A stretch of DNA of 43,998 nt, from contig JBFWYD010000031.1 in NCBI GenBank assembly GCA_050186825.1, forward strand, positions 1 to 43,998, written 5' to 3'. The notes under the pieces were generated by a model that was given only the letters and a program-made list of their open reading frames with translations, searched no databases and had not been told where the DNA came from. This DNA comes from Planctomycetota bacterium. Its GTDB lineage: Bacteria; Planctomycetota; J058. Shown in pieces: positions 3,296 to 30,407 of the stretch. The first letter of the stretch is position 1. Each line of letters begins with the position of its first letter. The translations under genes were made by a program, and so were the position numbers.

Positions 3296-3341
3296 GGGCA
3301 GGGCTGGTCCGGTGTCCTAGCGGCAGGCGGCGAGGCAGCGC

Positions 3342-4111
3342 GTGACCGAGTCGAGCCCCCCGGCCCCCGAAGGCGTGGACTGGTTCCAGCCCGCCCGGAT
3401 CACCCCGCGGATCTTCCAGAACGGCTACATCACGGCGCGCCAGGGCGAGCGGCTGCTCGGGCTCGGCGTCACGCACCTGCTCAACCTCGACCTGCCCTAC
3501 GGCACGAGCGGGATCGTGATGCCGGCAGGGCTCACGGTGTGGGAGCTCCTGCTCCACGACATGGCGCCCATGTCGCCAGATGACGCTCGGCGAGTGGTCG
3601 CGCTCTTCCAGCGCGCCCTCGATCTCGAGCAGGGGCGGATCTACGTCCACTGCAACGCGGGCCTGAGCCGCTCGCCCACGGCCGTATGGCTCTACCTCGT
3701 CGCGGCTGGCTGGGAGCCGGACGAGGCCCGTCGCACCATCGGCGCCGCGGCCAAGCACCTCGACGCGCCCGACCCGATCCTGGTGGACCGACTCGACCTC
3801 GACGACCTGCGCGCCTGGCCCGAACCCCGCGCTGGGAGCTGTGGCGGCAGGGGGCGGGCACCTACCCGAACGCGCTGGCGGCCTTCGGGCGCGCAGCGCC
3901 CGGGGGCCGCCAGCTCGACGCAAGCGGTGTGGCCGAGCGCAGCTCGGCCTCCGCGCCAGCGAACCTGCTCGAGGTCTGCGAGGACGAGGGGACCGCGCGA
4001 GCGGCCCTGGAACGGCTCGAGGCGAAGCAGCGCGAGTACGAGGCGCGGGGCTTCCCGCATCGTGTCCGCTTCTGGGTCGAAGCCTCGCGACCGCCCAAGG
4101 AGACGACATGA
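3342..4111 (+). CDS. dual-specificity (Cys-based, CX5R) protein phosphatase. The reading frame switches from frame 0 to frame +2 near 3826-3845, and the C-terminal ~90 aa end at TGA 4109-4111 (frameshift, authentic or a sequencing error)
   Basis: The N-terminal 165 aa contain the DUSP/PTP P-loop VHCNAGLSRSPT (HCxxGxxRS/T) in a DUSP-like context. Frame 0 then runs stop-free as Arg/Pro junk to 4937. A protein-like sequence (WELWRQGAGTYPNALAAFG...LERLEAKQREYEARGFPHRVRFWVEASRPPKETT) resumes in frame +2 and ends exactly at an ATGA overlap with the next gene. Confidence 0.55.
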
Positions 4112-4791
4112 GGGTCCTGGCCATTGGCGACATCCACGGCTGCTCCGCCGCCCTCGACGCCCTGCTCGAGGCGGTCCAGCCCGGCCCCGACGACCAGGTG
4201 ATCCCGCTCGGCGACTACGTGGACCGCGGGCCCGACAGCAAGGGCGTGATCGAGCGCCTGATCGCGCTCCAGGGCGCCACGAACCTGATCCCCCTGCTCG
4301 GCAACCACGACCAGATGATGCTCGACGCCCGGAGCGGCGACGCCGACAAGCTCTGGTGGATCGACGACTACGGGCGCAAGACCCTGGCCTCCTACGCGAC
4401 GCCCTTCGAGCGCGGCTCGCTCGAGACCGTGCCGCCCGAGCACTGGACCTTCCTCGCGGGCTGCCGCGACCTCCTCGAGACCGACACCCACGTGTTCGTC
4501 CACGCCAACCTCTACCCCGACCTCGAGCTCGCCGACCAGCCCGTGTTCATGACCCGCTGGGAGTCCCTGAGCGCGGACCTCTCCGCGGCGCACTGCTCGG
4601 GCAAGACCATGGTCTGCGGACACACCAGCCAGAAGTCGGGCCGGCCCCTCGACCTCGGCCACGCGGTGTGCATAGACACCTACGCCCACGGCGGCGGCTG
4701 GCTCTCCTGCCTCGACGCCTCCAGCGGTCGGCTGTGGCAGGCGAGCCAGGCGGGCGAGCTCTGGACGGGTTGGCTGCACGAGCGCTGCTGA
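4108..4791 (+). CDS. PPP-family Ser/Thr metallophosphatase (bacterial ApaH/PrpA-like calcineurin-fold phosphoesterase)
   Basis: 227 aa starting MRVLAIGDIHGC. It carries GDYVDRG and GNHD(Q) motifs plus downstream His residues (VHANLYPD, GHTS) in canonical PPP motif order. An AAGGAG RBS lies 6 nt upstream of the ATG, and the ATG overlaps the upstream TGA (ATGA). Confidence 0.85.
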   Translation: MRVLAIGDIHGCSAALDALLEAVQPGPDDQVIPLGDYVDRGPDSKGVIERLIALQGATNLIPLLGNHDQMMLDARSGDADKLWWIDDYGRKTLASYATPFERGSLETVPPEHWTFLAGCRDLLETDTHVFVHANLYPDLELADQPVFMTRWESLSADLSAAHCSGKTMVCGHTSQKSGRPLDLGHAVCIDTYAHGGGWLSCLDASSGRLWQASQAGELWTGWLHERC

Positions 4792-5120
4792 GCGCCTCTG
4801 CCTACCCGTCGAAGTTCCAGTCGGCAGGCAGCTCTCGAGCTCGACCGCTGCGTAGGTCCCCGAGCGCAGCTGAGCCAGGGCGGCGCGGAAACGCCCCCAC
4901 CCGTCAGCCGCGACCCAGATCGTCGTCTCTCCGTTGAAGCCGCCCAACCGCGCCTCGGCGCGCAGGCGCAGGTCGCCAGCGCTCGGGGTCCCGTCGGGAC
5001 CAGCTTCGAGCGGCTCCAGCACGAGCTCGGCGTCGGGCCCAGATGGATGCAGGGGAGGTGGAAGCGAGCGGGTCACCGCCTGAGCCTAGCGTGAGCCACG
5101 GCGGTCGAGCTCGCAGCCCC

Positions 5121-5188: not shown

Positions 5189-6241
5189 TTAGCCGACCGA
5201 GGACGCCGCGAGGCTCTGGTGGCGCGAGCGGGTGTCGCGCGCCTTGGCCGCGGGCTGCTCGACCGGGGCCGGCTTGGCCGGGGCCGGCTTGGCGGGCGGC
5301 TCCGTGGCCGCCGGCTGCTGGTCCTCGGCCTCGCCGGTCGCGGCCTCGAGCTCGAGGTCCTCGAGCTCGTCCTCGTCGTCGTCGCCCTTCTTCCCGCCCT
5401 CGCGGCTGCGCTTGTTGTTCGCCTTGATCAGCTGCTGGGCCTTGTTGAAGGTGATCGGGGCCACGATCGGCTCGTGGCGCCCCTTGACGTGGATGTCCCC
5501 GAAGTGGACGCGGCCGATGTAGGTGTCGTTCTTGAGGATCCAGGAGACCCCCGCCCGCGACCACTGCTTGCTCCGCCGCGTCCTGAGGCCCTGCTCGTCG
5601 AGGAGCTTGATCAGCCGCTTCATGCTGCGCAGGCGCAGGTACTCGCGAAAGATCAGCTTGACGACCTCGGCCTCCACCTCGTCCGGCACCAACATCACGC
5701 CCTCGCTCGAGCGCTTGTCGTAGTCGCGCCGGTAGCCGTAGGGAGCGGGGCCGCTCTGGTGCTTGCCCTGGCGGGCCCCCTCCTCGCGACCCTTCAGCAG
5801 GCGCTGCGCGATCTCGCGCTTGCGCTCCACCTCGTCGCTCTTGCGCGCCGCGACCTTCTTCGGCTGGCGCGCCTTGTAGTCCTCGACGATCGCCCGGAGC
5901 TGGCGGGCCGTGTCGTCGTTGGCGACGAGCACCCGCTTCCCGGCGTTCCGCAGCTCCTCGACGGGGTCGAAGGTGAGCGTGCTGCACAGCCCGCGGAGGC
6001 GGCAGCCGGAGACGATCAAGACCGCCTCCCAGTCGCTCTCCTCCATGTCGTCCAGGATGTTGACGAGCCCTGCGCGGGTGTCCTGGGTGGGGGTCAACCC
6101 GTGGTCGGTGTGGACCTTCTCCAGCGCGAGCCCGGTGTGGGAGGCGAAGGCCTCCAGTCTTCGAGTCTGCTCCTCGAGCGAGGGGAAGCCCCCTTCCTCC
6201 TGCTCGAGGTAGCTGACTCGGGCGTAGGCGACGACCTTCAC
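5189..6241 (-). CDS. serine recombinase. It has a resolvase/invertase-type catalytic domain plus a large-serine-recombinase 'recombinase' domain, lacks the zinc-ribbon/coiled-coil tail, and ends in a Lys/Pro/Ala/Asp-Glu-rich C-terminus
   Basis: The N-terminus MKVVAYARVSYLEQ matches the YxRVS(T)xxQ catalytic serine motif, and the downstream R..L.......D.L.V...RL.R block is present (TRAGLVNILDDMEESDWEAVLIVSGCRLRG). The recombinase-domain signatures APYGYRRD and ILKNDTYIGR follow. The protein is 350 aa with an acidic/KPAPA tail. The GTG start lies 7 nt after the MamK-like gene's stop. Confidence 0.8.
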   Translation of the reverse strand: MKVVAYARVSYLEQEEGGFPSLEEQTRRLEAFASHTGLALEKVHTDHGLTPTQDTRAGLVNILDDMEESDWEAVLIVSGCRLRGLCSTLTFDPVEELRNAGKRVLVANDDTARQLRAIVEDYKARQPKKVAARKSDEVERKREIAQRLLKGREEGARQGKHQSGPAPYGYRRDYDKRSSEGVMLVPDEVEAEVVKLIFREYLRLRSMKRLIKLLDEQGLRTRRSKQWSRAGVSWILKNDTYIGRVHFGDIHVKGRHEPIVAPITFNKAQQLIKANNKRSREGGKKGDDDEDELEDLELEAATGEAEDQQPAATEPPAKPAPAKPAPVEQPAAKARDTRSRHQSLAASSVG

Positions 6242-6248
6242 CGGTCGG

Positions 6249-7337
6249 TTAGCGCAGCTGCTCCCAGGCCTCGACCGGCATGTCGTAGGCGATCTTGAGC
6301 GCCCCGTTCGCGCCGGCGTAGACGGGCTCCTGCACCGGACGGACCTTGCCGCCGCCGTAGCCCTGGAGCGCCTCCTCGAGCGCGCGGTCGAGGCCGTGGA
6401 TGCGGCTGCCGCCGCCGGCCAGGATCACGTTGTTGCGCAGGCGGTCCTGGAACTCGGGGTCGAAGGTCGAGATCAGGCGGTCGACGGCCTCGACGATCGG
6501 CTCGACGATCCGGCTGCAGCCCTTGCGGACCTCGGCGGTCACGTCGAAGGCCTTGGGGCGGCCGCGCACGGGGAAGGTGACCATCACGGGCTCGGCGGCC
6601 TCGGTCACGAAGGCGTGCTTCTCCTTGATCTCGCGCACCATGTTGATGTTGAAGCTGGCGTCGGGGCAGCGGCCCTTGAACAGCTCGAACAGCTGGTGGT
6701 CGATGAAGTCGCCGGCCTGGGTCAGCGTGACCTGGTCGTCCTCGTCGGGCATCGAGCCCTTCATCCGGCAGAGGTCGGTGGTCCCGGCGCCGATGTCGAT
6801 CACCAGGCAGTCGTGGAGCCGGTCCATCCCGTAGGCGACCGAGAAGGGCTCGCTGCAGATCACCACCGAGTCGAGCACCTCACGGGCGGCCTCGATGATC
6901 GACTGCTTGTTGTGGATCGAGGCCTGCGCGGGGCAGCCGATCACGCCGTAGACGAGCTGGCCGGGCTTGGGGCGGGCCAGGCTGACCGCGTGCTGGATCA
7001 GGGCGCGCGCGGCCTCGAGGTTGGCGCTCACGTCCTCGCTCGGGGCGCCGGTCGAGTCGGAGTGCTTGATCACGCCCTTCTCGAGCGGGCGGTAGAGGTC
7101 GAGGGCCAGGCGGTGCGCCATGGCGTCGTCCCCGAACAGCACGTCGCGCTGGAGCAGCTTGCGCGAGACCACGTCGCGCGGGTAGCCGACGATGCTGCTG
7201 ACCGTCTCCCGCACGCCGTTGCTGGCCGAGATCGAGGTCCGCGAGGTGCCGAGGTCGATGCCGACGTAGAGGATCGAGTCGCTCTCGCCCTTCCGGTAGT
7301 TCAGGCGGTCCTGCGCCGCGCTCTTCTGCTTCTCCAT
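6249..7337 (-). CDS. actin-fold ATPase, MamK-like (MreB/ParM/MamK superfamily)
   Basis: Actin-fold signature motifs appear in order: phosphate-1 VGIDLGTSRTSI, connect-1 GVIGCPAQAS, phosphate-2 LVIDIGAGTTDLC, and adenosine/connect-2 ILAGGGSRIHGLDRALEEAL. Local blocks (IVGYPRD, CSEPFSVAYGMDRL, DEDDQVTLTQAGDFIDHQL) resemble MamK more than MreB or ParM, as far as I can recall. The start is ATG 7337-7335 (M27 of the tracker ORF) with a GGGGGAAG RBS 6 nt upstream. Confidence 0.85.
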   Translation of the reverse strand: MEKQKSAAQDRLNYRKGESDSILYVGIDLGTSRTSISASNGVRETVSSIVGYPRDVVSRKLLQRDVLFGDDAMAHRLALDLYRPLEKGVIKHSDSTGAPSEDVSANLEAARALIQHAVSLARPKPGQLVYGVIGCPAQASIHNKQSIIEAAREVLDSVVICSEPFSVAYGMDRLHDCLVIDIGAGTTDLCRMKGSMPDEDDQVTLTQAGDFIDHQLFELFKGRCPDASFNINMVREIKEKHAFVTEAAEPVMVTFPVRGRPKAFDVTAEVRKGCSRIVEPIVEAVDRLISTFDPEFQDRLRNNVILAGGGSRIHGLDRALEEALQGYGGGKVRPVQEPVYAGANGALKIAYDMPVEAWEQLR

Positions 7338-7392: not shown

Positions 7393-8166
7393 CTACGCCC
7401 GACGGCGGAGGCCAAGGTTCTGGTCGATCAGTCCGTTGAGCAGGCCACCCCCCCGGCGGCGCGCTCCCGAATTCGTTCCCAGCCCGCTGGCGGCGGGCGG
7501 CGGCGGCGGCGGCTCAGGGACCGCCGCTGGCGCGGGCGGCGGCTCCGCCCCGCGCGGCTCGGCCGCGTGGGTCCGCCCCGCCGCGGTCGACTGGCCCGGG
7601 TTGCGGAGCTCCACGTTGGCCCGCACCAGGCCCGCCAGGAGGCCCCCGCCGCCGCGCGGCATGGGCCGCGTCGTGTGTCCCGCGCCCTGGCTGGGCGCGC
7701 CCAGGCCCGCGGGCCGGCTCGGCGCCGCAGCCAGCGGCGTCGCGGCGACCGGCGCAGCGGCGACCGGCCCGTGCCCGAGCGGCGCGGCGACCGGCCCGTG
7801 CCCGAGCGGCGCGGCGACCGGCCCGTGCCCGAGCGGCCCGGCGACCGGCGCCGCGGCGGCGCGCTCGAGCCGCGCGGCGGCGCGCTCGAGCCTGGCCGCG
7901 ACCGCGGCCAGGCCCTCGCGCTCGCTGGCGCGCTCGGCCAGGCGCGCCTGCGCCTCGGCCAGCCGCTGGGCCAGCGCGTCGCGCTCGGCGCGCAGCCGGT
8001 CCAGCTCCGCCTGCGTCGGGCCCCCGCGGAGCTCGGCGCGCAGGCGCGCCACCTCCTCGCGCAGCCGGTTCCGCTCCTCCGAGAGGCGGGCGATGATCTC
8101 CACCGCGGCCCGCGGCAAGTCGCGGGTGCGGGAGAGGATCGCGGGGCTGCGCTCGAGGGTGGCCAC
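7393..8166 (-). CDS. coiled-coil plus Ala/Pro-rich repeat protein (candidate filament-associated adaptor)
   Basis: A GTG start follows a GGAG that overlaps the upstream stop (TGAGGAGCGAACACGTG). The N-terminal ~110 aa form a heptad-like coiled coil (ERNRLREEVARLRAELR...LAEAQARLAERASEREGLAAVAARLERAAARLERAAA). Then come three tandem GHGPVAAPL repeats, an Ala/Pro linker, and two copies of a GGGLL.GL...N..LR motif. Only the 3' ~775 nt of the 509-aa tracker ORF look protein-like. Confidence 0.5.
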   Translation of the reverse strand: MATLERSPAILSRTRDLPRAAVEIIARLSEERNRLREEVARLRAELRGGPTQAELDRLRAERDALAQRLAEAQARLAERASEREGLAAVAARLERAAARLERAAAAPVAGPLGHGPVAAPLGHGPVAAPLGHGPVAAAPVAATPLAAAPSRPAGLGAPSQGAGHTTRPMPRGGGGLLAGLVRANVELRNPGQSTAAGRTHAAEPRGAEPPPAPAAVPEPPPPPPAASGLGTNSGARRRGGGLLNGLIDQNLGLRRRA

Positions 8167-9615: not shown

Positions 9616-11433
9616 GTGATCGAGGTCCAGGCCCTCACCCAGCGCTACGGGAGCTACGAGGCGGTCCGCGAGCTGAGCTTCGCCCTGGGCGCGGGGGAGG
9701 TGGTCGGCTTCCTCGGCCCCAACGGGGCGGGCAAGTCGACGACCCTCAAGGTGATCGCGAGCTTCCTGGCCCCGAGCGCCGGCCGGGTCAGCGTCGGGGG
9801 CTGCGACGTGGCCCGCGACCCCCTCGGGGTCCGGGCCCGGCTGGGCTACCTGCCCGAGCACTGCCCCCTCTACGAGGAGATGCTCGCGCGCGAGCTGCTC
9901 GACTTCGCCGCGCGCGTCCGCGGCCTGAGCCGCGCCGAGCGCGCCGCGGCCCGCGCGCGCGTGGTCGAGCGCTGCCGGCTGGAGGAGGTGATCGAGCGCC
10001 CGGTCAGCGACCTGAGCAAGGGCTACCGCCAGCGCCTCGGGCTGGCGACCGCCCTCCTGCACGACCCCCGGATCCTGGTCCTCGACGAGCCGACCAGCGG
10101 GCTGGACCCGAACCAGGTGCTCGAGATGCGTGCGCTCGTGCGCGAGCTGGGCCAGGAGCGCACGGTCCTGTTCAGCAGCCACGTGCTCTCCGAGGTCGAG
10201 GCCACCTGCGAGCGCGTGGTCGTGATCCACCGCGGCCGCCTGGTCGCGGACGACGCGGTGGCGAGCCTGGCGCGGCGGATCACCGGAGGGGCGCTCGACG
10301 TCCGTGGGGCGGAGGCCGAGGCGGTCGCAGGCGTCCCAGGCGTGGCCGAGGCCGTGGCGCTCGCCGACGGGCGGGTGCGCGCGCGGCCGCGGGCCGGCGT
10401 CGAGGACCTCGCGGCGCGGCTGTTCCGCTGGGCGGCCGGGAGCGGCCGGGTGCTCGTGGAGATAGCGCCGCAGCGGGTCACGCTCGAGGACGTGTTCGCG
10501 GCGCTGACCGCGGATTCGAAGGCGGTCGCTCCGCAGGCTACGGGATCAGGAGCCGCGGAGGCGGCTCTCCCTAGCGCGGCGCAGAGCCGCAGAGCCGCAG
10601 AGGGGCCCTCGCAGGAGCCGGCGCGCGACTCGGAGACGCCGGATTCGCAGGCGGCGGCTACCGAAGCGGGGGGGACAGGAGCTGCGAAGGCGTTGGATTT
10701 CAGCGCAGAGATCGCAGAGAGCGCGGAGATCGGTGGGTGTGAGCGAAGGCGCGGCTCCGATCCGTCGGGTGAAGGAGAGAAAACGAGGGAGAGAGACTCG
10801 GATTCGGATTCGGCTTCGGACTCCCCCCCGGCCTCGGATGCGACCCCTCGCTCACACCCCGCGATCTCCGCGATCTCTGCGATCTCTGCGCTGAATATCA
10901 ACGCTGTCGCACCCCCTCACGACCCCGAGCTCGCAGCCCGCTCCGGCTGTGAGTCTCCGGGCTCGGTCTCGGACTCGGACTCGGTCTCGGACTCGGACTC
11001 GGACTCGGACTCGGTCTCGGACTCGGTCTCGGTCTCGGACTCGGACTCGGCCTCGGCCTCGGCCTCGGCCTCGGACTCGGCCTCGGCCTCGGCCTCGGAC
11101 TCGGACTCGGTCTCCGCCTCGGACTCGGACTCGGACTCGGACTCGGACTCGGACTCGGACTCGGTCTCGGACTCGGACTCGGACTCGGACTCGGACTCGG
11201 ACTCGGACTCGGACTCGGACTCGCCCTCGGACTCGCCCTCGGACTCGGACTCGCGCCCTCGCTCACACCCACCGATCTCCGCGGACTCTGCGATCTCTGC
11301 GCTGAATAACAACGCTGTCGCACACCCTCGCGATCCCGACCTCGCAACTCGCCCCCGCTCAGAGTCTCCGGCCTCGGCCTCGGCCTCGGCCTCGGACTCG
11401 GACTCGGCTTCGGACCCGGAGCGCCCCACGTGA
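9616..11433 (+). CDS. ABC transporter ATP-binding protein (GldA-like; ABC-2/gliding-motility-associated type) carrying a ~300-aa low-complexity C-terminal extension encoded by a repeat element
   Basis: Walker [11 protein letters not shown]-loop, ABC signature LSKGYRQRL, Walker [13 protein letters not shown] and H-loop SSHVL are all present. The ATPase fold ends near LEDVFAALT (about nt 10530). The ORF then continues without a stop through an inverted-repeat element and (GACTCG)n arrays that encode (SD)n, up to TGA 11431-11433, which overlaps the GTG of the next gene. Confidence 0.8.
10540..11430. repeat. composite dispersed repeat (copy 1): unit A (~10540-10750), unit B (~10845-10975), (GACTCG)n-type hexanucleotide microsatellite arrays (~10958-11260 and ~11378-11425), and a second partial unit B (~11255-11385)
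   Basis: Near-identical sequence (>90% by eye) recurs at 17735-18400. Unit A is gcagaggggccctc...gattcgcaggcggcggct(a/g)ccgaagcggggg...gttggatttcagcgcagagatcgcagagagcgcggagatcg. Unit B is cgc(t/c)cacaccc(a/g)ccgatctccgcg.actctgcgatctctgcgctgaata(t/a)caacgctgtcgcac.ccctc.cgatccc and occurs 3 times in the window. The tcggactcggac tracts are directly visible. Confidence 0.9.
10699..10895. repeat. ~50-bp imperfect inverted repeats flanking a ~95-nt loop (potential large hairpin of the MITE/RPE type)
   Basis: The left arm (ttcagcgcagagatcgcagagagcgcggagatcggtgggtgtgagcgaagg) and right arm (cctcgctcacaccccgcgatctccgcgatctctgcgatctctgcgctgaa) are reverse complements with about 3 mismatches. The same architecture recurs at ~17897-18127. 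Confidence 0.8.
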
Positions 11434-13727
11434 GGGTCCCGCTGGCGATCGCGCGCCGCGAGCTAGGCGCCTTCTTCAAGCGACCCGCGGCCTGGGTGTT
11501 CCTGGCGGCCTTCCTGCTCGTGAGCACCGTGCTCGGGCTGCGCGGCTTCTTCGAGCGCGGGGTCTCGGACCTGCGCGACTACTTCCTCGGGCTGCGCTAC
11601 GCCTTCGTGCTGCTCGCGCCCGCGGCCGCCATGCGCCTGTGGGCCGAGGAGCGCCGGGCGCGGACCCTCGAGCTCCTGTTCTCGCTGCCCGTCTCGCCCG
11701 CGCAGGCCGTGCTCGGCAAGTACCTCGCCGGGGCCGCGGTGCTCCTGATCGCGCTCGCGCTCGGCGCGTGCCTCCCGCTGAGCCTCGCGCCCTACGCCAG
11801 CTTCGACGCGGGGCAGCTCGCGGCGGGCTACCTGGGCGCCTTCCTGGTCGCGGCCACCTACCTCGCGCTCGGGACCCTCGGCTCCGCGCTCAGCTCGAGC
11901 CAGGAGGTCGCCTTCCTGAGCGGAGCCCTGGCCTGCCTGCTGCTCAACCTGCTCGGCGACCCGCTCCTGACCGAGCGCGCGGCGGCCTACCTGCCCGAGC
12001 CCTGGGTGCGCGCCGCCGCGCGCTTCGCGGTGGGCGAGCACTTCGACGCCCTGACCCGCGGCGTGCTCGAGGCGCGCAGCCTGGCCTACTTCGGCGGCGT
12101 GAGCGCGCTGGCCCTGTTCCTGACCGTGCTCCTGGTCGAGCGCCGCTCGCGCGGGCGGGCCGAGGCCGCGCTGGCCGCCGTGCTGGCGCTCGCGGCGCTC
12201 GGGCTGTGGCTCGACCTCAGCGCGCAGCGCGCGCTCGCCGCGCGCGTCGACCTGACCGTCGAGCGGCGCAACTCGCTCGCGCCGCCGACCCGGGCGCTGC
12301 TCGCGCGCGTGCGCGACACCCTGGTGGTCCGGGCCTACCTCTCGCAGCACAAGCTGCCCGAGGCCACCCGGCCGGCCACGCGCCGGCTGCTCGACCTGCT
12401 CGAGGACCTCGAGGCCGCGGGCGGCGGTAAGGTCAAGCTCGAGGTCGTGGACCCGGTCACCCCCGAGCTCCAGGCGGCCGCCGAGCGCGAGGGCGTCGAG
12501 CGCTGCCAGTCGGAGATCGGCGGCGACCTGCGCACGCTCTACGCCGGCGTGGTCCTCTTCTACGGCGGGCGCCCCCCGGCCGCGATCCCGGTGGCGATCG
12601 ACCCGCGCCGCAACCTCGAGGTCGACCTCGCCCAGGCGATCCGCGGCCTGCTCACGCCGCGCCCGCGGGTCGGCGTGGCCGGGCTGGGCCGCGAGCAGTA
12701 CGAGGAGGCCCTGGCCCCGCTCCGCAAGGTGGCGACCGTCGAGGCGCTCGACCTCGCCCGGCTCAAGGCCGTCCCCGAGGGGATCGCGGCCCTGATCTAC
12801 ACCGCGCCCGTCCCCCCGCGCGAGCGCGAGGTCTACGTGCTCGACCAGTACCTCCAGCGCGGCGGGCGCCTGCTGCTCCTGCTCGAGGGCTACGGCCAGC
12901 CGCCCCAGGACCCCTGGCTGCGGCATCCCTTCGAGCTCGGCGCGCTCCAGCGCGCCCTCGAGGCCTGGGGCGTGCGCACGAGCCCCGCGCTCGTGGTCGC
13001 GGCCTCGCGCCGGACCTACACGATCCAGACCGAGCGCGGCCGCGTGCAGGCGGCCTACCCCTGGTTCCTGATCCCCACCCAGGGGACCCTCGGTCCGACC
13101 AACACCGCGGTGCTGCCCTTCGCGGTCGAGGTCGAGGCCCCGAAGGGCGAGGTCCTGCTCGCGACCGAGCCGGGCTGGGCGCTGCCCGGCCAGCAGCGGG
13201 TCGAGCCCACGCGCGCGCTCCAGCTCCCGGGCGACGAGCGCCGCCCGCGCGCGCTGGCGGTGGGCGTGCGCGGCGAACTCCTGAGCCCGTGGGCCGGCGG
13301 CCCGGGGCCGGTGCTCCTGCCCGAGGCCGAGGGCGGCGAGGACCCGCTCGCGATCCCGCTCGCGAAGCCCGCGGGCCCGGCCGCCCTGGCCGTGGTCGGC
13401 GACACCGACTTCCTGCGCCCGACCTTCGCCGCGCAGGGCCAGGCCGCCGCGCTCCTCCAGAACCTGGTCGAGTGGTGCCTCGACGACGGGGACCTGGCCC
13501 AGGTCCGCGCGCGGACCGCGCCGCCCGCCCTCAGCCAGGTGCCCGAGTCCGGGGTCGATCGGCGCGAGCTCTGGGCCTGGCGCTGGAACCTCGGCCTGGC
13601 CGCGCTAGTGCTCGCGGGCGGGCTGAGCTGGCTGGCCGCGCGGCGCGTGCGCCGCGATCGGGCCGCCAGCGCGCAGCGCGCGCGCCTCGCGCCACGCCCA
13701 GCGCCCCGGACCGGGGAGGCGGCGTGA
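11430..13727 (+). CDS. fusion of an ABC-2 family permease (GldF-like, N-terminal ~240 aa with 6 TM) and a GldG-like ABC-transporter auxiliary component (C-terminal ~520 aa with N- and C-terminal TM anchors)
   Basis: N-terminus [21 protein letters not shown]... with multiple hydrophobic helices, typical of an ABC-2 permease. It is followed by a TM anchor ([15 protein letters not shown]) and a long soluble domain, with a terminal anchor ([21 protein letters not shown]), as in GldG/ABC_transp_aux proteins. It sits immediately downstream of the ATPase with a 4-nt GTGA overlap. Confidence 0.75.
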
Positions 13728-16486: not shown

Positions 16487-18429
16487 GTGCCCCGCTTCGT
16501 CCCCTGCCGGATCAGCCACCTCCTCGGCGAGCTGAGCGCGCTCCTGACCGAGCGCGACCGCGGGGCCTTCTACGCGCTGGCGCGCATCGTCGAGGCCTAC
16601 TACCACCACGCCGCCGGCGCCCAGACGCGCATGGCGGAGGAGCTCTACGCGCCCTTCGACCCCGACAGCGAGACCGTCCCGACCGTGGCCCCGCTCGGGG
16701 CCGACCCGGTCGGGCGGCTCTACGGCTGGCTGGACGGGCTGTTCGAGCGGGCCAACTTCGAGCGCGTCTCCCAGGACACGCTCCTCTCCGAGGCCGACCA
16801 GGAGGTGCTGACCACCTTCGAGATCGACCCCGACCTGCGCTCGGTCGAGCGCCTGGCCGTCTACGTGCGCGGGAGCGGGACCAAGGCCGTGCGCCTGCGC
16901 AAGGCCAAGGCCTTCTTCCGGCTCGAGGAGGCGGAGCAGCCCACCTACCGCCGCGTGGCGATCGTGGTCCGCACCGCGCACGACCCCTACGTGCTCCTGA
17001 AGATGTTCAAGGACGTGCCGCGCACCGACGTGGAGCTGCTGCTGCCCACCGTGCGCGTGAAGATGAAGCTCCTCGACAAGCTCAAGCTCTCGGGCACGGG
17101 CGGCGCCGCGGCGCTCTCGACCTGGAAGGTGCTCCGCCTCGCCTACACCTACGCGCCCACCATCACCAAGCTCCTGGCCGTCCCCTTCAAGCTGTTCCTG
17201 CTCCCGATCGCCTTCCTTGTCACGGCCTTCTACGGCGGCAAGACGGTCCTCGACTACGCCAAGATCCGCAGCAGCTACGTGACCGCGCTCGCCGAGCACC
17301 TCTACTCCATCACCCTCGCGAGCAACCGCGCCGTGCTCGGCCGCCTCGCCGCGCAGGCCGGCGAGGAGGACACCAAGGAGGCGCTGATCGCCTACGCGCT
17401 GCTGCTCGGCGCCCCCGAGGGGCTCTCCGCCGCCGCCCTGCGCGAGGCCGCCGAGGCCCTGGTCTGGGACCGCTACCGCGCGCGCGTCCGCTTCGACGTG
17501 GAGGACGCCCTGCGGAAGCTGAGCGAGCTCGAGCTGATCGAGCCGCTCGACGAGCAGCCAGGTGGCCCCGTGGCGCGCGCGGTCGACCTCGACGAGGCCC
17601 TTCGCCGCGTGGACAAGTCCTGGGACGACCTCTACAGCCCGCCGCCCCGCGAGACGCGGCTCTGGCGGCTGCTGCGGCGGAAGGAGCTCGCCGCGGGGGA
17701 GACTGCCGATTCGGAGGCGGTGACTGGCGAGGCGGAGGGATCAGGAGCTGCAGGGGCGGTTCAGCCCAGCGCAGCGGCGCAGAGGCGCGGAGACGCAGAG
17801 GGGCCCTCTCTGGAGCAGGCGCGCGACTCGGAGACGCCGGATTCGCAGGCGGCGGCTGCCGAAGCGGGGGGAACAGGAGCTGCGCAGGCGTTGGATTTCA
17901 GCGCAGAGATCGCAGAGAGCGCGGAGATCGCCAGGAGTGAGCGGAGGGGGGGCTCCGCAGCCCAGTCGGATCGGGACGAACGGACGGGCACGGGCACGGG
18001 CACGGGCACGGGCACGGGCATCCCAATGTCGAACTCGGACTCGGACTCGGACTCGCCCTCGGACTCGAAGTCGCGCCCTCGCCCACACCCACCGATCTCC
18101 GCGAACTCTGCGATCTCTGCGCTGAATAACAACGCTGTCGCACACCCTCGCGATCCCGGCCTCGCAACTCGCCCCGGCTCAGAGTCTCCGGCTTCGGCTT
18201 CGGACTCGGCCTCGGCCTCGGCCTCGGACTCGGACTCGGACTCGGTCCCGGACTCGGATTCGGATTCGGATTCGGATTCGGATTCGGCCTCGGCCTCGGC
18301 CTCGGACTCGGACTCGGACTCGGACTCGGACTCGGATTCGGATTCGGATTCGGACTCGGCCTCGAACTCGGACCCTGAAGCCGCGTCGGAAGACCCTGAC
18401 GACGTGCGGCCGATCCGGACGGTGCCGAG

Positions 18430-18433
<4 letters not shown>
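16487..18433 (+). CDS. DUF3754-like (TMEM143-like) membrane-associated protein. The core ends near nt 17700 and is followed by a ~240-aa low-complexity tail encoded by the second copy of the dispersed repeat
   Basis: The core of ~400 aa has a conserved-looking central hydrophobic hairpin (LLAVPFKLFLLPIAFLVTAFYGGKTVLDYAKIRSSYVTALAEHLYSITLASNRAVLGRL). The family call is from recollection only. The ORF continues stop-free through unit A, (GGGCAC)6 encoding TGTGTG, unit B and (GACTCG)n encoding (SD)n, to TGA 18431-18433, which overlaps the TTG start of the downstream kinase. Confidence 0.55.
17735..18400. repeat. composite dispersed repeat (copy 2): unit A (~17735-17950), inverted-repeat arms (~17897-17940 and ~18076-18127), (GGGCAC)6 (~17985-18020), unit B (~18073-18200), and a (GACTCG)n-type array (~18190-18370)
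   Basis: Direct nucleotide comparison with 10540-11430; the reading frame relative to the element is the same as in copy 1. Confidence 0.9.
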
Positions 18434-24373: not shown

Positions 24374-27300
24374 ATGAGGCCCTGGCCGGCCGCACTCGCC
24401 TACGCGGCGCTGCTCGCGCTCCCGGCCGCGGCGCAGCCCGCGGCCCAGGACCCGCTCGAGCGCTTCGCGGACGCGCTCCGGCGCGAGGCGGGCGAGGGGA
24501 AGCTGGCCGAGGCGCTCGCGATCTACCAGGCCCTCGCCGAAGACCCGACCACGCCCGCGGGCCTGCGCGCCCGCGCGCGGCTGCGCGCGGCGGCCTGCCT
24601 GGCGCAGCTCGGGCGCAAGGAGGAGGCGACCGCCATCTACGAGGAGCTGGCCCGCCGCGCGAGCGAGCCCGCCCGCCAGCGCGCCCAGGCCCGGGCCGCG
24701 CTCGAGGCCCTGCGGGTCGGCGGCGAGCTCGACCTCGCCCTGCGTCAGGACCGCGCCGGCAACCACGCCGCCGCGCAGCAGCTCTACTCGCGCCGGCTCA
24801 AGCGCCTGCCCGAGGACGCGCGCGGCTGGCTGCTGCGCGGGATCAGCCGCTACGCCGCGGGCGACCACGAGGGCGCCCAGGACGACCTCGAGCACGCGCT
24901 CGGGCTCAAGCCCCGCTGGTCGGTGGCCCTGCTCTGGCGCGCGCGCGCGGCGGCCGCGGCCGGCGACGACGAGCGGGCCGAGCGCGACCTCGACGCCGCG
25001 GTGACCCTGCGTCCGATGCAGCCCGAGGGCTACCTCGAGCGCGGTCGCTGGCACGCGAGCCGCCAGCGCTTCGACCTGGCCCAGCGCGACCTGGACCTGG
25101 CGCTGCGCCGCGACCCGGCCTGCCACGAGGCGCGGCTCGAGCTCGGGCGCCTGCACCTGGCGCGGCTCGACCTCGAGGCCGCCCGGCGCGAGCTGAGCGC
25201 CGTGGCGCGCCCTCGCGGCGCCGCCCCGCGGGCCGCGAGCGCGGCCCTGCTCGAGCTCGGCTGGCTGCTCGAGGCCGAGGCCGACCCGGTCCTGGCCCGC
25301 CTGGCCGCCGAGGAGCGCCTGGCCACGGCGGACGGCGCCGAGCACGAGGCCCCCCTGGCCGCGCTCCGGCGCGAGGCGACGCGCGCGGCGCTCCGGGCGG
25401 CCGAGTCGTCCTTCCGGCTCGCGCTCGAGCTCGACCCGAGCGCGATCGAAGCGGAGCTCGGCCTGCTCGAGCTGCGCGTCACAGCTCTCGAGGCCGCGCG
25501 CGCGGACGCGGGCCACGACGCGCAAGGCGGGGCGGAGCAGCCCTTGACCGCGACGATGCCGGCGGCATCGCCGGGCGCGCCGCGGCCGCAGGGATCGCCG
25601 GGCGCGCCGCGACCCGCGGGAGCCCCCGACGGGCGGCGACCCGAGGAGGGCCCCCACGCGCCGCGACCCGCGGGAGCGCCGGGCGCGTCGCGAGCCACGG
25701 GCGACCTCGCCGGCCCATCGCCTGGACCGGCGGGTCCCGCGATCGACGGCCGCGGCGGCGCGACGTCGCGCGACGAGCCGGGCGACACGTCGGGACCCGC
25801 CGCGTTCGGCGGCTCGGGCCTGGAGCCGTCGGCGGCGCTCGAGTCGCTGACGCGTAGGCTGGACGGGCTCTCGCCCTGCTCCCTCGACGAGCCGGAGGGA
25901 GAGGGCTGGCCGCTGCGCTGCGCGGAGCGGCGTCCGCTGCGCGAGTGGCGCGCGCGCGCCCTGCGGCTGCTGGCCCGCGCCCGCGCGCTGACCCACGACG
26001 TCCCGGGCGAGCGCGCCGCCTGGGAGCGCCTGCTCGCGCTCGACGCCCACGACCCCGCCGCGCTGGCCTGGCGCGCGCGCGGCGAGCGCGACCCGACCGC
26101 CCGCGCGCTGGCCGCGCGCGAGGCGCGCGACGCCGCGCAGGACGAGGCGCGCGCCGAGGGCCGCTGGCTGGCGCGCGCGCGCATCCGCTCGCGCCGCGCC
26201 CAGGGGCGCCGACTCCGCGCCGAGGAGCGCGCCGCGCTCTGGGCCTGCGCCCGCGCCTGGTCCGCGCTCCCCGGCGACGGCGAGGCCTTCCTGCTCGCGG
26301 CGCGCCTCACCGAGCGCGCGGGGCGCCGAGACCTCGCCCTCGAGCTCTCGCGCCGCGCCTGCGCCGCGGATCCGGACGCTCCCTCCGCCTGGGCATACCG
26401 CGGCCACCTGCTGGGCGGCGTGTCGCCCGCTCCCCACGCATCGCGCGACCCGAGCGCGACGGCCCCCGCGCACCTCGGCCCCGCGCACCTCGACCCCGCG
26501 CACCTCGACCCGCACGGCCCGCGCGACCCGACCCACGCGAAGCGCGACCCGAGCGACCCGAGCGACCCACGCGATTCCGGCGCGCCACCCGCGCTGCGCG
26601 ACCCGAGCGGCCCAGCTGCCCAAGGGGTCGCGCAGCGCGATCCGGCCGAGGCCGCGCGTTGCTACGACCGCGCGCTGGAGCTCGCGCTCGCGCAGTCCGC
26701 AGGCGCGCTCGACGCGTCCGCCGTCGAGGCCCTCGGCGGCCGCGCCCAGCTCCGGCTCGGCGCCCCCGACACCCGCGCCGCCGCGCGCGCGGACCTGCTG
26801 CGCATCCGCGACGGGGTCCCCCAGGACCTCGCGCCCCTCGACCCCTGGACCCTGCTCACCTGGCGGCGCGCCCTCGAGCTCCTGGCCGAGCTCCAGGCGA
26901 GCCCGCAGGACGAGGCCGAGCGCGCCCGCACCGCGGCTGCGCGCGAGCGCGTGACCGCGGCGATCGCCGCCCGCGCGCGCGCCGAGCTGCGCCGCGCCGA
27001 GCAGGCCGAGGCCAAGCTGGACTACCTGGGCGCGATCCGCGCCTACGAGCGCGTGCTCGCCCTCGACCCCGACGACGCCGAGGCGCATCGCGGCCGCGGC
27101 CAGGCGCATCTGCGCGCGGGCGACCTCCTGCTCGGCGCCCTGGACTTGTCGCGCGCCGCGCAGCTCGACCCGCGCCAGGGCCAGGCCCTGCTCGAGCGCG
27201 TGCGCCACGTCTCGCAGGTCGCCGACCTCGAGCGCGTCCTGCACGAGGCGACGGAGCTGGTCGAGTCGCTGCCCGAGGTGCCCGCCGCCCACCTCCTGCG

Positions 27301-27754
27301 CGGCCTCCTGACCCTGGCCCGCGCCGAGCTCGGCCGCGTCGGCCCCACCGACCTCGTCCAGGGGATCGCCGCCCTGGACCGCGCCCTGACCCTCGACCCG
27401 CGCTTCGTCCTCGCGCGCATCTGCCGCGGCAGCCTCGAGGAGGAGCTCGCCCGCCGCGGCGGCCCCGAGGCCCCCGCGTGCGCCCAGCGCGCCGACCGCG
27501 ACTTCGCCGCCGCCGAGGAGCTCTACCCCGCCGGCTGGCTCGCCCCCGCCCGCCGCGCCGCCCTCGCCGCCCGCGCCGCCGCGCGCCCCGAGCTCCCCGC
27601 CCGCGAGCGCGCGGCGCGGAGGACGCGGGCGCTCGAGCACCTGCGCCGCGCGGTGACCCGCGGCCTGGACCTCCAGGCGTGGCTCTCTCGCGAGACCGCC
27701 GCCGCGGCGGCCCTGAGCGGCCCGGAGCTGGAGGCGCTGCGCCGTCCGCGCTGA
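24374..27754 (+). CDS. secreted or lipoprotein-like TPR-repeat protein (1126 aa) with two internal low-complexity Pro/Gly/Ala/Asp segments
   Basis: N-terminal signal peptide MRPWPAALAYAALLALPAAAQPAAQDP. Many TPR-like 34-residue units (W..RG.....G....A..DL..AL.L.P). Low-complexity inserts occur at ~aa 395-480 (PGAPRPQGSPGAPRPAGAPDG...) and ~aa 690-760 (HLGPAHLDPAHLDPHGPRDPTHAKRDPSDPSDPRD). Confidence 0.65.
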   Translation: MRPWPAALAYAALLALPAAAQPAAQDPLERFADALRREAGEGKLAEALAIYQALAEDPTTPAGLRARARLRAAACLAQLGRKEEATAIYEELARRASEPARQRAQARAALEALRVGGELDLALRQDRAGNHAAAQQLYSRRLKRLPEDARGWLLRGISRYAAGDHEGAQDDLEHALGLKPRWSVALLWRARAAAAAGDDERAERDLDAAVTLRPMQPEGYLERGRWHASRQRFDLAQRDLDLALRRDPACHEARLELGRLHLARLDLEAARRELSAVARPRGAAPRAASAALLELGWLLEAEADPVLARLAAEERLATADGAEHEAPLAALRREATRAALRAAESSFRLALELDPSAIEAELGLLELRVTALEAARADAGHDAQGGAEQPLTATMPAASPGAPRPQGSPGAPRPAGAPDGRRPEEGPHAPRPAGAPGASRATGDLAGPSPGPAGPAIDGRGGATSRDEPGDTSGPAAFGGSGLEPSAALESLTRRLDGLSPCSLDEPEGEGWPLRCAERRPLREWRARALRLLARARALTHDVPGERAAWERLLALDAHDPAALAWRARGERDPTARALAAREARDAAQDEARAEGRWLARARIRSRRAQGRRLRAEERAALWACARAWSALPGDGEAFLLAARLTERAGRRDLALELSRRACAADPDAPSAWAYRGHLLGGVSPAPHASRDPSATAPAHLGPAHLDPAHLDPHGPRDPTHAKRDPSDPSDPRDSGAPPALRDPSGPAAQGVAQRDPAEAARCYDRALELALAQSAGALDASAVEALGGRAQLRLGAPDTRAAARADLLRIRDGVPQDLAPLDPWTLLTWRRALELLAELQASPQDEAERARTAAARERVTAAIAARARAELRRAEQAEAKLDYLGAIRAYERVLALDPDDAEAHRGRGQAHLRAGDLLLGALDLSRAAQLDPRQGQALLERVRHVSQVADLERVLHEATELVESLPEVPAAHLLRGLLTLARAELGRVGPTDLVQGIAALDRALTLDPRFVLARICRGSLEEELARRGGPEAPACAQRADRDFAAAEELYPAGWLAPARRAALAARAAARPELPARERAARRTRALEHLRRAVTRGLDLQAWLSRETAAAAALSGPELEALRRPR

Positions 27755-28880: not shown

Positions 28881-30407
28881 TCACCTCCCCGGCGGAGCGG
28901 CGAGGACGGCGGGGCGGCCGGTGACCAGGGCGTAGGTCCAGGGGTCGGCGAGGTGGGGCTCGCCCGGGAGGGCCTGGGTCGGGCACTCGGGCTCGCGCGT
29001 GCGACCGCGCATGCTGCGGCCGGCGGCGTGGCCGAGGACGGCGAGCCAGGCGCCGAGGAGCGCGGCGAGCAGCCAGCGTTGGGTGGGAGCGTGGCGGCGC
29101 CAGCGGACCAGGAGCTCGACGGCGGCGAGGGGGGCGAGGGCGCTGAGCGGCGCGATCGTGAAGCGCGTCGGGTCGTCGGTGGACCAGACCACGATCGTGG
29201 CGGCTGCGAGGCCCGCGGCGGCGAGGGCGAGCAGGCGACCGGCCGGGGCGCGCAGCGAGAGCAGGGCCAGGGGCAGGACCAGGAAGGCGTTCTTGGGCAG
29301 GAGGGCCGCCTCGAGCTGGTGCGCGAGGTTGCGCGCGATGCCCGCGAGGATCTGGGCCAGGCCCGCGGGCGGGGCGCTGCGCGCGGGGTCCATCAGGTCC
29401 TCGTAGCGCGCGGCGCGCAGCAGGTCGAGCTGCGGGGCGAGCACGCCGGTCGCGGCGCAGAGCGCGGCGTTGAGCGCGGCGAGGAGCGCGAGCAGCGCGA
29501 GCGCACGGCGGCGCCGGCCGCCCGCCCAGTGCCAGAGCACGAGCAGCGGGACCAGCACCCAGGCCTCGGGACGCGCGAAGCGGGCCAGGCCGGCGCAGAG
29601 GGCCTCGCCGAGGAGCGTGCCCCGACCGGCCGGGTCGAGCTCTCCCTGCCAGGCGAGGCGGAGGGCGGCGAGGACGAGCACCAGCCCCAGCGGCTCGGCC
29701 CAGAGGTGCACCGAGGCGCGGACCAGGAAGGGCAACCAGGCGACGGTCAGCCCTCCGAGCAGGGAGCACATGACCAAGGGAGCGCCGCGCAGACCGCGGC
29801 GCCGCGCGAGCTCGCCGCCGAGCGAGGCCGCGAGGACGGCGGCGAGCGCGGCCAGAGCCACGCCGCTGAGCTGGAGCGCGGCCGGTGGCCAGCCCGGCTC
29901 CGGGCGGACCAGGGGCGCGAGCAGCCACGGGTAGAGGGGAGCGCGCTCGCCGTAGGCCTCGTGGACGGCCGGAGCCTGCACGTCCGCGGCCTGGAAGCGG
30001 ACGCGGATCGGCAGGACGAAGCCCTCACCGGCGCGCAGCGAGCGCGCGATCAACAGGTTCTCGGCCGCATCGGGGCTGTGGTGGAAGTCGCGCAGGGCAG
30101 GCTCGAGGCGCGGGAGGACCGCGAGCACCGCGACCAGGAGCGCGAGCGCGATCCTCGGCAGGAGCCCAGGTCCATCCCGCGACACGGCCGCGAAGTCACG
30201 CGACCTCGACGCGGCCGCGGAGTCGCTCGACCTCGACACGGCCGCGAAGTCACGCGACCTCGACGCGACCGTGCTCTCACTCGACCTCGACGCGGCCGCG
30301 GAGTCGCTCGGCCTCGACGCGACCGTGCTCTCACTCGACCTCGACGCGGCCGCGGACTCGCTCGGCCTCGGAGACGCACGCGCGGGCTCGGGGATCGGGC
30401 TCGACAC
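28881..30407 (-). CDS. polytopic membrane glycosyltransferase-like protein (GT39/PMT_2/ArnT-like) with an N-terminal Ser-rich tandem 9-aa repeat region
   Basis: The C-terminal ~440 aa are extremely hydrophobic with at least 9 predicted TM helices. The first-loop motif is LRDFHHSPDAAENLLIARSLRAGEGFVL, resembling the D-E/A-A...Y/L loop of PMT_2/ArnT proteins. The start is assigned to GTG 30407-30405, 8 nt after the DUF58 stop, which places the 27-bp x7 repeat in-frame. An alternative start lies near 30193, after the repeat. The upstream 324 codons of the tracker ORF are Arg/Pro junk antisense to the DUF58 gene. Confidence 0.5.
   Translation of the reverse strand: MSSPIPEPARASPRPSESAAASRSSESTVASRPSDSAAASRSSESTVASRSRDFAAVSRSSDSAAASRSRDFAAVSRDGPGLLPRIALALLVAVLAVLPRLEPALRDFHHSPDAAENLLIARSLRAGEGFVLPIRVRFQAADVQAPAVHEAYGERAPLYPWLLAPLVRPEPGWPPAALQLSGVALAALAAVLAASLGGELARRRGLRGAPLVMCSLLGGLTVAWLPFLVRASVHLWAEPLGLVLVLAALRLAWQGELDPAGRGTLLGEALCAGLARFARPEAWVLVPLLVLWHWAGGRRRRALALLALLAALNAALCAATGVLAPQLDLLRAARYEDLMDPARSAPPAGLAQILAGIARNLAHQLEAALLPKNAFLVLPLALLSLRAPAGRLLALAAAGLAAATIVVWSTDDPTRFTIAPLSALAPLAAVELLVRWRRHAPTQRWLLAALLGAWLAVLGHAAGRSMRGRTREPECPTQALPGEPHLADPWTYALVTGRPAVLAAPPGR
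30184..30372. repeat. 27-bp tandem repeat x7 (minisatellite; consensus approximately gcggccgcggagtcgctcgacctcgac, alternating with the variants acggccgcgaagtcacgcgacctcgac and gcgaccgtgctctcactcgacctcgac)
   Basis: Seven contiguous 27-nt units are read directly. The period is divisible by 3. In the minus gene frame they encode 9-aa units (SRSSESTVA, SRPSDSAAA, SRSRDFAAV). Confidence 0.9.

Follow-up and report, generated by a model that had tools for sequence, protein, structure and literature searches.

Selfish DNA that lies in-frame within genes is best documented in Rickettsia, which has a reduced intracellular genome. Here, we describe a palindromic element of ~290–500 bp that is found in-frame within five or more unrelated genes of a single uncultured bacterium with very high GC content. 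Two of these genes lie in a stretch of 43,998 nucleotides (hereafter the window: contig JBFWYD010000031.1 of NCBI GenBank assembly GCA_050186825.1), where the element occupies the 3' parts of an ABC transporter ATPase gene (locus 1) and a DUF3754 protein gene (locus 2), ~7 kb apart. We consider it likely, with a probability of about 75%, that the element represents a lineage-specific, non-autonomous family of palindromic repeats whose behaviour matches that of the Rickettsia palindromic elements (RPEs).

RPE-1 to RPE-10 (Ogata et al. 2000, 2002; see PMC10969869 and PMC3733652 for summaries) are dispersed hairpin repeats located in-frame within unrelated Rickettsia genes. The element resembles them in being dispersed, hairpin-forming and non-autonomous, and in its location within unrelated genes, in a single frame, with a conserved peptide and with the host domains intact. 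In contrast to RPEs, it is two to four times longer (~290–500 nt versus ~100–150 bp), it carries hexanucleotide arrays of up to 49 units, and it is known from 5 loci instead of dozens. Its host, which is labelled Planctomycetota, has a GC content of ~75%, unlike Rickettsia, an AT-rich alphaproteobacterium. In view of the GC content of the host, sequence homology between the element and RPEs is implausible. An initial inspection of the window (hereafter the sequence-only reading) took the in-frame, stop-free position to be the hallmark of Rickettsia-type in-frame palindromic elements. In-frame palindromes are not unique to this genus, as intragenic repetitive extragenic palindromes (REPs) have been reported in Opitutus terrae and other bacteria (PMC3733652).

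REP units are 20–40 bp long, are tagged by GTAG or CGTC, and many of them are linked to RAYT transposases (PMC3733652). Like the element, REPs and REPINs are palindromic and sometimes located within open reading frames (ORFs), where they encode extra residues. Moreover, the element core (CGCAGAGNN)3 resembles the short intergenic REP-like hairpins of many soil bacteria, a similarity that could reflect either common descent or convergence. However, the arms of the element are ~120–135 nt long and lack a consistent tag; GTAG occurs only sporadically, namely in the locus-1 left arm (as reverse complement) and in the right arm of one copy (L051). The 65 kb available of the host genome showed no RAYT. 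These 65 kb were the DNA-level search space and comprise the window and L051, a locus on another contig of the same assembly that carries the gene of protein P0003. They provide three copies of the element as DNA (locus 1, locus 2 and L051).

[quoted passage not shown] In line with the element, they are small and of non-coding type, with inverted repeats and multiple copies. Typical MITEs, however, have terminal inverted repeats of 15–30 bp around an unrelated middle, flanked by target-site duplications, whereas the element is palindromic nearly throughout. The mycobacterial interspersed repetitive units (MIRUs), reportedly described by Supply et al. in 1997, are said to be tandem direct repeats of 40–100 bp between cistrons of operons, neither palindromic nor located mid-gene. 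Reportedly, their frame is continuous with the flanking genes and their ends overlap the neighbouring stop and start, similar to the two window loci.

The staphylococcal Sdr/Clf adhesins likewise have long (Asp-Ser)n tracts, for which the coding DNA is a repeat of hexamer type. Yet, this is a likeness in low complexity only, with NCBIfam scores for SdrD/ClfA/ClfB/SdrC of 24–40 bits against cut-offs of 999–2500. The proteins that bear the element lack the architecture of an adhesin, as well as a signal peptide and a sortase motif, and their tract grows from a palindromic repeat. The distinctive features of the element are its size of 290–500 nt, its composite build from a degenerate extra left arm (L'), a left arm (L) and a right arm (R), its built-in expanding arrays, its high-GC host and its arm core of 9-nt units of the CGCAGAG type.

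Tails of two genes in the window

Two ORFs of the window, at 9616–11433 (605 aa) and 16487–18433 (648 aa), have long tails that share repeats with each other. The features at both loci are as follows.

Locus 1
9616–10509, + strand: core of host gene 1, residues 1–298 of a GldA-type ABC transporter ATPase (TIGR03522, PDB 4yer; third-position GC 0.98)
10510, + strand: left end of the long form of the element, where L' begins with GCGGATTCGAAGGCGG
10510–10625, + strand: L', degenerate extra left arm with (CGCAGAGCC)x3 (direct-repeat family D3, 62–73% identity)
10626–10765, + strand: L, left palindrome arm with core TTCAGC GCAGAGATC GCAGAGAGC GCGGAGATC (inverted repeats I2 and I3)
10766–10830, + strand: loop with short GATTCG/GGCTTCG/GACTC seeds (from the sequence; apex unpaired or weakly paired in the fold)
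10831–10960, + strand: R1a, inner right arm (nhmmer E=3e-33; 80% complementary to L)
10958–11253, + strand: hexanucleotide array of 49 units (TRF period 6, 49.3 copies, 90% matches)
11241–11375, + strand: R1b, outer right arm and the better partner of L (87%; I3, arm profile and identity comparison)
11369–11420, + strand: terminal short array of ~8 units GCCTCG/GACTCG (TRF, unit list)
11416–11433, + strand: probable native 3' end of the ATPase gene, CCGGAGCGCCCCACGTGA (third positions back to G/C only)
11430–13727, + strand: downstream gene, outside the element, encoding an ABC-2 permease fused to a GldG-like domain (Pfam ABC2_membrane_2/3, DUF7088, ABC_transp_aux)

Locus 2
16487–17699, + strand: core of host gene 2, DUF3754 protein (PF12576 at residues 159–281; third-position GC 0.99)
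17700–17823, + strand: L', which begins with ACTGCCGATTCGGAGGCGG (family D3; weak arm-profile match at 17715–17793)
17824–17962, + strand: L arm (nhmmer match at 17839–17961, minus strand, E=1e-28)
17963–18061, + strand: loop with (GGCACG)5–6 and (GACTCG)4–6 arrays (TRF 17984–18020 and 18029–18074)
18062–18195, + strand: R arm (nhmmer E=7e-34; 75–77% complementary to L, inverted repeat I6)
18196–18375, + strand: hexanucleotide array of 30 units (TRF, unit list)
18376–18433, + strand: short tail to the stop, with host-like third positions in the last ~30 nt (third-position GC)

Both tails represent DNA that is foreign to the host genes, added to complete host domains. In the ATPase, residues 2–298 of 605 match positions 3–301 of the 301 positions of TIGR03522 (GldA_ABC_ATP), and PDB 4yer aligns to residues 2–299. 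A Pfam scan found no family in either tail, including the remaining ~305 residues of the ATPase.

The composition of the tails is non-coding-like. GC content in the window ranges from 70 to 82%, and host coding sequence has GC contents of ~0.73–0.83, 0.44–0.58 and 0.97–0.99 at the first, second and third codon positions (GC1, GC2 and GC3), respectively. In contrast, the non-array parts of the element have flat values of ~0.65–0.77 in every frame (GC1=GC2=GC3). Codons ending in A or T are nearly absent from the host parts and common in the element, with a sharp switch at the junctions: the drop in GC3 begins at codon GAT 10513 in locus 1 and at codon ACT 17702 in locus 2. By this measure, the element extends over ~10510–11415 and ~17700–18400. 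A host GC3 of ~0.98 thus exposes foreign segments, and allows their boundaries to be mapped from composition alone.

Both loci are stop-free in a single frame up to the stops TGA 11431–11433 and TGA 18431–18433, which overlap the start codons GTG 11430 and TTG 18430 of the next genes (tetranucleotides GTGA 11430–11433 and TTGA 18430–18433). This agrees with the sequence-only reading, which had placed both copies inside coding sequence, in one frame, and open to the stops at 11433 and 18433. The GTG at 11430 is preceded by GGAG 9 nt upstream, and its 765-aa product is identical to the NCBI protein 'Gldg family protein'. At locus 2, the TTG at 18430 starts a Ser/Thr kinase gene with a Pkinase domain at residues 12–259. 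No other forward frame is open, with stops in both of them in the right arm (TGA/TAA within GCTGAATAA). When the non-array parts were shuffled, the probability of a frame without stops was ~0.03–0.04 per locus.

One reading frame is common to all recognisable copies of the element; a 10-residue peptide is invariant in 5/5, and the motif PxISAxSAISAL is found in 4/5 (alignments A1 and A2). This might suggest a genuine protein module, i.e., a disordered acidic or serine-rich linker or tail that was shuffled between proteins under protein-level selection, with an incidental palindrome at the DNA level. The shared frame (…PPISA.SAISAL), a GC3 of 0.85–1.0 in the frame of the microsatellites, and the sub-threshold NCBIfam likeness to the Ser-Asp repeats of the Sdr/Clf adhesins would all fit such a module. 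However, the arms lack the codon-position signature of real genes. Furthermore, differences between copies are spread equally over codon positions 1/2/3 (10/8/14, 7/8/6 and 7/7/6), and hence show no sign of selection on the peptide. We therefore regard a protein module as very unlikely, an assessment to which the DNA-level complementarity and the distribution of the element, discussed below, also contribute.

The exact 605-aa and 648-aa products were missing from a collection of 15 billion proteins, in which neighbours from the same metagenome-assembled genome (MAG) were present. The NCBI annotation of 9616–11433 and 16487–18433 may use other starts or treat the repeat-bearing genes differently.

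Palindromic arms and hexanucleotide arrays

Alignment of all arms showed that their similarity spans ~120–135 nt per arm. The two loci share 91% identity over the 184 nt of their left parts (10576–10759 versus 17774–17957), and 89% between their L arms. R1b (11241–11371) and the right arm of locus 2 (18062–18191) are 94.7% identical, while R1a (10831–10960) has 84% identity to each of them. Relative to locus 2, locus 1 thus has an additional right arm (R1b), in accordance with the third copy of a right-hand module reported by the sequence-only reading. The same reading described ~450-bp copies as near-identical. Repeats are indeed present, but the full spans proposed (10540–10975 versus 17735–18200) are only 78% identical and the copies overall 78–95%.

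The window contains five copies of the arm-core 20-mer TCTGCGATCTCTGCGCTGAA, where 0 are expected; two are on the minus strand (left arms) and three on the plus strand (right arms). In locus 1, the L arm contains it at 10699–10718, within an nhmmer arm-profile match at 10641–10763 on the minus strand (E=4e-31). Across the window, the arm profile recovered these arms, with matches of ~120–130 nt per arm, and nothing further.

In locus 1, the palindrome includes an inverted repeat of 94 nt with 80% complementarity (10667–10760 versus 10834–10927), and another of 78 nt with 87% complementarity between L and R1b (10683–10760 versus 11245–11322). In locus 2 the arms have a complementarity of 75–77%. 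The inverted repeats suggested earlier are therefore real, but they are longer than the ~50 bp initially given (78–94 nt, in arms of ~120–135 nt). Their ability to fold into a large hairpin was also borne out, with RNA folding z-scores of -9.1 (locus 1) and -6.1 (locus 2). A complementarity of 80–87% over 78–94 nt, together with the near-perfect 274-nt hairpin of L051, is a property of DNA and argues against a protein module. Pairing of L' with R1b as a nested palindrome was considered and rejected, with an identity of just 58–61%. An Rfam scan of the element gave no meaningful match, and the literature yielded nothing relevant on the core sequence.

The left arms of different copies are closer to each other than to their own right partners. 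Because of this, and because complementarity ranges from near-perfect in L051 to 75–77% in locus 2, it looks as if each palindrome was inherited from a master copy and is decaying, without compensatory upkeep.

As noted by the sequence-only reading, long (GACTCG)-type arrays follow the element, with 49 units in locus 1 (10958–11253) and 29–30 in locus 2 (18200–18373 by TRF). They are not pure. The arrays are interrupted and made of G[A/C/T][C/T]TCG units, with pure runs of no more than 9 units. Locus 1 contains 31 GACTCG, 8 GCCTCG, 6 GTCTCG and other units, is read as (D/A/V-S)n and has an in-frame GC3 of 1.0; locus 2 contains 11 GACTCG, 8 GATTCG, 7 GCCTCG and others. Hexamer seeds are included even in the compact L051 unit, and the number of units at the right end increases from 2 in L051 and ~8 in P0001 to 30 in locus 2 and 49 in locus 1. 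This spread in array length fits slippage after insertion, which we infer from the comparison of copies. Any product of slippage would keep the frame, because the repeat unit consists of six bases.

A trivial explanation would be that the tails are artefacts, either of collapsed or chimeric repeats in a MAG, or of ORFs that are open by chance at 75% GC. The source is a MAG, and the hexamer arrays are open in all six frames. Furthermore, the Logan assembly of SRR27751816 contains a 3.8-kb contig for a neighbouring gene, but none across the repeat-bearing genes. Yet, the copies differ from each other (78–95%), and each is bordered on both sides by unique in-frame host sequence. The arrays are not featureless but interrupted by variant units, and the non-array parts would be open by chance at P ~0.03–0.04. 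In addition, identical products are encoded in two deposited assemblies, as the window genes were found unchanged in GCA_050250455.1 (contig JBFWOT010000064.1). Taken together, an artefact seems extremely unlikely.

All neighbours and proteins associated with the repeat have paired NCBI accessions of the series MGE07.../MGE41..., labelled 'Planctomycetota bacterium' (MAG). The host is therefore not a member of the Myxococcota according to NCBI's own label, contrary to what had been assumed from the sequence.

Copies in other genes of the same organism

The five known loci encode an ABC ATPase, a DUF3754 protein, an RND permease, a C39 peptidase and a ketosynthase-like protein. The RND efflux permease (P0001, 1236 aa) was the only find of a six-frame protein query among the matches listed, a list of at most 8000 candidates that Arg-rich frames had probably flooded. 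Residues 4–426 and 634–1230 of P0001 align to residues 15–430 and 434–1023 of MdtB, and the insert (residues 427–633, ~207 aa), flanked by homologous sequence on either side, takes the place of 3 residues of MdtB. We take the insertion site to be the cytoplasmic loop after the helix with the proton-relay Asp pair, assuming AcrB topology. The insert consists of the full L', L, loop and R, and is closest to locus 2, with which it shares the loop peptide, though with smaller numbers of Gly-Thr and Asp-Ser units. Since P0001 and locus 2 share the whole unit with different repeat numbers, a discrete unit must have been copied.

P0003 is a C39-family peptidase with a compact copy of 288 nt (L051:10445–10732), located between its two domains and upstream of the Peptidase_C39_2 domain (residues 269–386). 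This copy forms the near-perfect 274-nt hairpin mentioned above (z = -12.9), with 2–3 hexamer units in the loop and 2 at the right end. P0002 (MGE0708476.1), a short ketosynthase-N-like protein, contains L', L and the loop at residues 173–290, after its N-terminal domain. L' is thus present in locus 1, locus 2, P0001 and P0002. The P0002 copy bears Gly-Thr and Ser-Val runs and has no recognisable right arm. The next 75 residues correspond neither to a family nor to any frame of the arms, and the gene may be degenerate. A frame-shifted right arm was considered, but its alignment scores were within the null range, leaving P0002 with a left-half copy only.

With complete host domains, the GC signature and three more genes, the original proposal of a dispersed MITE- or RPE-like palindromic element, in-frame in coding DNA, is upheld. 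Placement at the 3' end with overlap of the next gene holds for the window loci but is not a rule of the family, as the copies in P0001 and P0003 are internal. The insertion sites are of different kinds (a membrane pump loop, enzyme linkers and C-termini), which argues against a shuffled protein module.

Possibly, the hairpin itself has a function in RNA or DNA, for instance as mRNA stabiliser, processing site or brake on translational coupling, and the open frame is a side effect. This would be consistent with the very stable folds (z from -6 to -13), with the position of both window copies directly before the overlapping start of the next gene, and with related-looking (CGCAGAGNN)n hairpins between cistrons in other bacteria (e.g., L049). 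However, other copies are found mid-gene, so that the position with respect to gene ends is not conserved. The Rfam scan gave no match, changes in one arm are not compensated in the other, and in locus 2 complementarity has decayed to 75–77%. Decay of the palindrome and variable position within genes both argue against a conserved RNA function, which we consider quite unlikely.

One such hairpin, (CGCAGAGNN)n / (NNCTCTGCG)n-CTGAA, is located at L049:5050–5165 between two cistrons of a contig with 68% GC. Judged from the translations only, the cistrons look like part of a formate-dehydrogenase/NADH-dehydrogenase-type operon. The upstream ORF (3340–5106) stops in the hairpin loop, so that the repeat supplies its last ~15 residues.

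When 1.84 billion representative proteins were searched with a profile, only P0002 and P0003 were retrieved, both from this organism. The lack of homologues elsewhere in this collection also speaks against a protein module. Two profile searches of 90% clusters (alignments A2 and A3) were empty and missed even P0001, and are thus uninformative. At the DNA level, an exact 20-mer scan of the GTDB species genomes, which do not include the source genome, found no copy of the element. Single matches in Nitrospira and Acidobacteriota occurred at about chance frequency (~1 expected in 596 Gb) or came from other CTCTGCG-type repeats. The same scan of JGI metagenomes gave 43 loci, none of which was this element, while ~25 represented a different, Blastocatellia-type palindrome. 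The family has so far been seen in this one organism, and appears to be lineage-restricted.

This different palindrome is abundant in metagenome contigs of 52–56% GC (L005:850–960, L008, L010, L011, L013, L015, L019, L020, L023, L027 and ~15 more). It has a ~36-bp stem of four 9-nt units (TCTCTGCGG TCCTCTGCG TATCTCTGCG ATCTCTGCG-CTGAA...TTAA-CGCAGAGAT...), often within a longer unit that begins with GGCTTTGCACAAAAAG, and shares the exact 20-mer with the window element. Two GTDB matches that carry it are labelled Blastocatellia and Pyrinomonadaceae. In Nitrospira contigs (L001:3161–3183, L004:4994–5016 and L016), 23 nt (TCTGCGATCTCTGCGCTGAATAT) are shared with the R1a arm, without surrounding repeat structure; this is probably due to chance.

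Origin of the element and other repeats nearby

Our results can be described by a simple model. The basic unit is an imperfect palindrome of ~290 nt with two arms of ~120–135 nt, each of which has three 9-nt units of the CGCAGAG type, together with TTCAG/CTGAA, in its core. The long form of ~500 nt has the degenerate left arm L' in addition. Both the loop and the right end of the unit contain hexanucleotide seeds of the GACTCG type. It may have moved by being copied into unrelated genes, where the surviving copies would be those that hold one particular open frame. They would survive where selection tolerates a disordered peptide rich in Ala, Ser, Asp, Glu and Gly, such as a C-terminal tail, an interdomain linker or the cytoplasmic loop of an RND pump. 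Copies in C-terminal tails would end shortly before the ribosome-binding site and start codon of the following gene, leaving both intact. Slippage after insertion would then enlarge the hexamer seeds and, if the tails are translated, produce (Asp/Ala/Val-Ser)n tracts of up to ~100 residues.

According to the sequence-only reading, the frame would be retained because a frame-breaking insertion uncouples the downstream gene. Coupling can be a local reason at most, because the P0001 and P0003 copies are internal. More generally, the frame would be retained because any copy that broke it would ruin the host gene.

Several points weigh against a mobile, RPE-like repeat family. Just five loci are known, and the arm profile (nhmmer) found no additional copies in the 65 kb searched. 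Three of the five came from protein searches, in which only in-frame copies are detectable, so that the statistics on frame and intragenic location are biased. The junctions, defined by the drop in GC3, show no evident direct repeat, with fuzzy ends and three DNA copies to compare. Neither a clear terminal motif common to all copies nor, within the 65 kb, a transposase with matching ends was found; the only recombinase nearby is a serine recombinase (5189–6241) with no arm sequences alongside. The element could have spread by recombination or gene conversion instead of transposition, given the distance of 7 kb between the loci and the 94.7% identity of R1b to the right arm of locus 2. Moreover, the arms do not co-vary and thus give no sign that the hairpin is maintained. 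Finally, the ~300-nt arrays may be mis-assembled in a MAG, and the agreeing assemblies may be non-independent.

An extension of the RPE-like interpretation is that the element acts as an active generator of new protein, in which an in-frame palindromic insert seeds fast-expanding hexamers and thereby creates Asp/Ser-rich disordered segments de novo. We consider this unlikely. The (CGCAGAGNN)n-CTGAA core, which the element has in common with REP-like hairpins of soil bacteria, Acidobacteriota among them, could, in turn, point to mobilising or DNA-binding machinery shared across phyla.

If the element is indeed an RPE-like repeat family, it offers a clear case of in-frame selfish DNA in an extremely GC-rich MAG of free-living type. 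Palindromic insertion followed by frame-neutral hexamer expansion would be a route to add up to ~300 residues to a conserved protein. The findings also carry a warning for annotation, as long C-terminal 'extensions' and internal low-complexity inserts in proteins of high-GC MAGs can be repeat insertions instead of domains.

Other features of the window were also recorded. On the minus strand at 5189–7337, the serine recombinase gene (Resolvase and Recombinase domains, 5189–6241) adjoins a gene annotated by NCBI as 'MamK family actin-like protein' (6249–7337); both lie 3–4 kb upstream of locus 1. The minus-strand ORF 7393–8166 contains, at 7757–7849, a nearly perfect tandem repeat with a 27-nt period (3.4 copies, 98%). 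In the ORF of a TPR protein (24374–27754), GC3 is reduced (<0.8 versus ~0.95) at 25586–25763 and 26534–26702, coinciding with tandem repeats of 27 nt (25562–25701) and 39 nt (26464–26568). These stretches may be other in-frame repeat insertions or expansions. A further tandem repeat at 30180–30370 has nested periods of 27/54/81 nt (7.1 copies of 27 nt, 78–90% matches), and falls in a region where both GC skew and AT skew are strongly positive.

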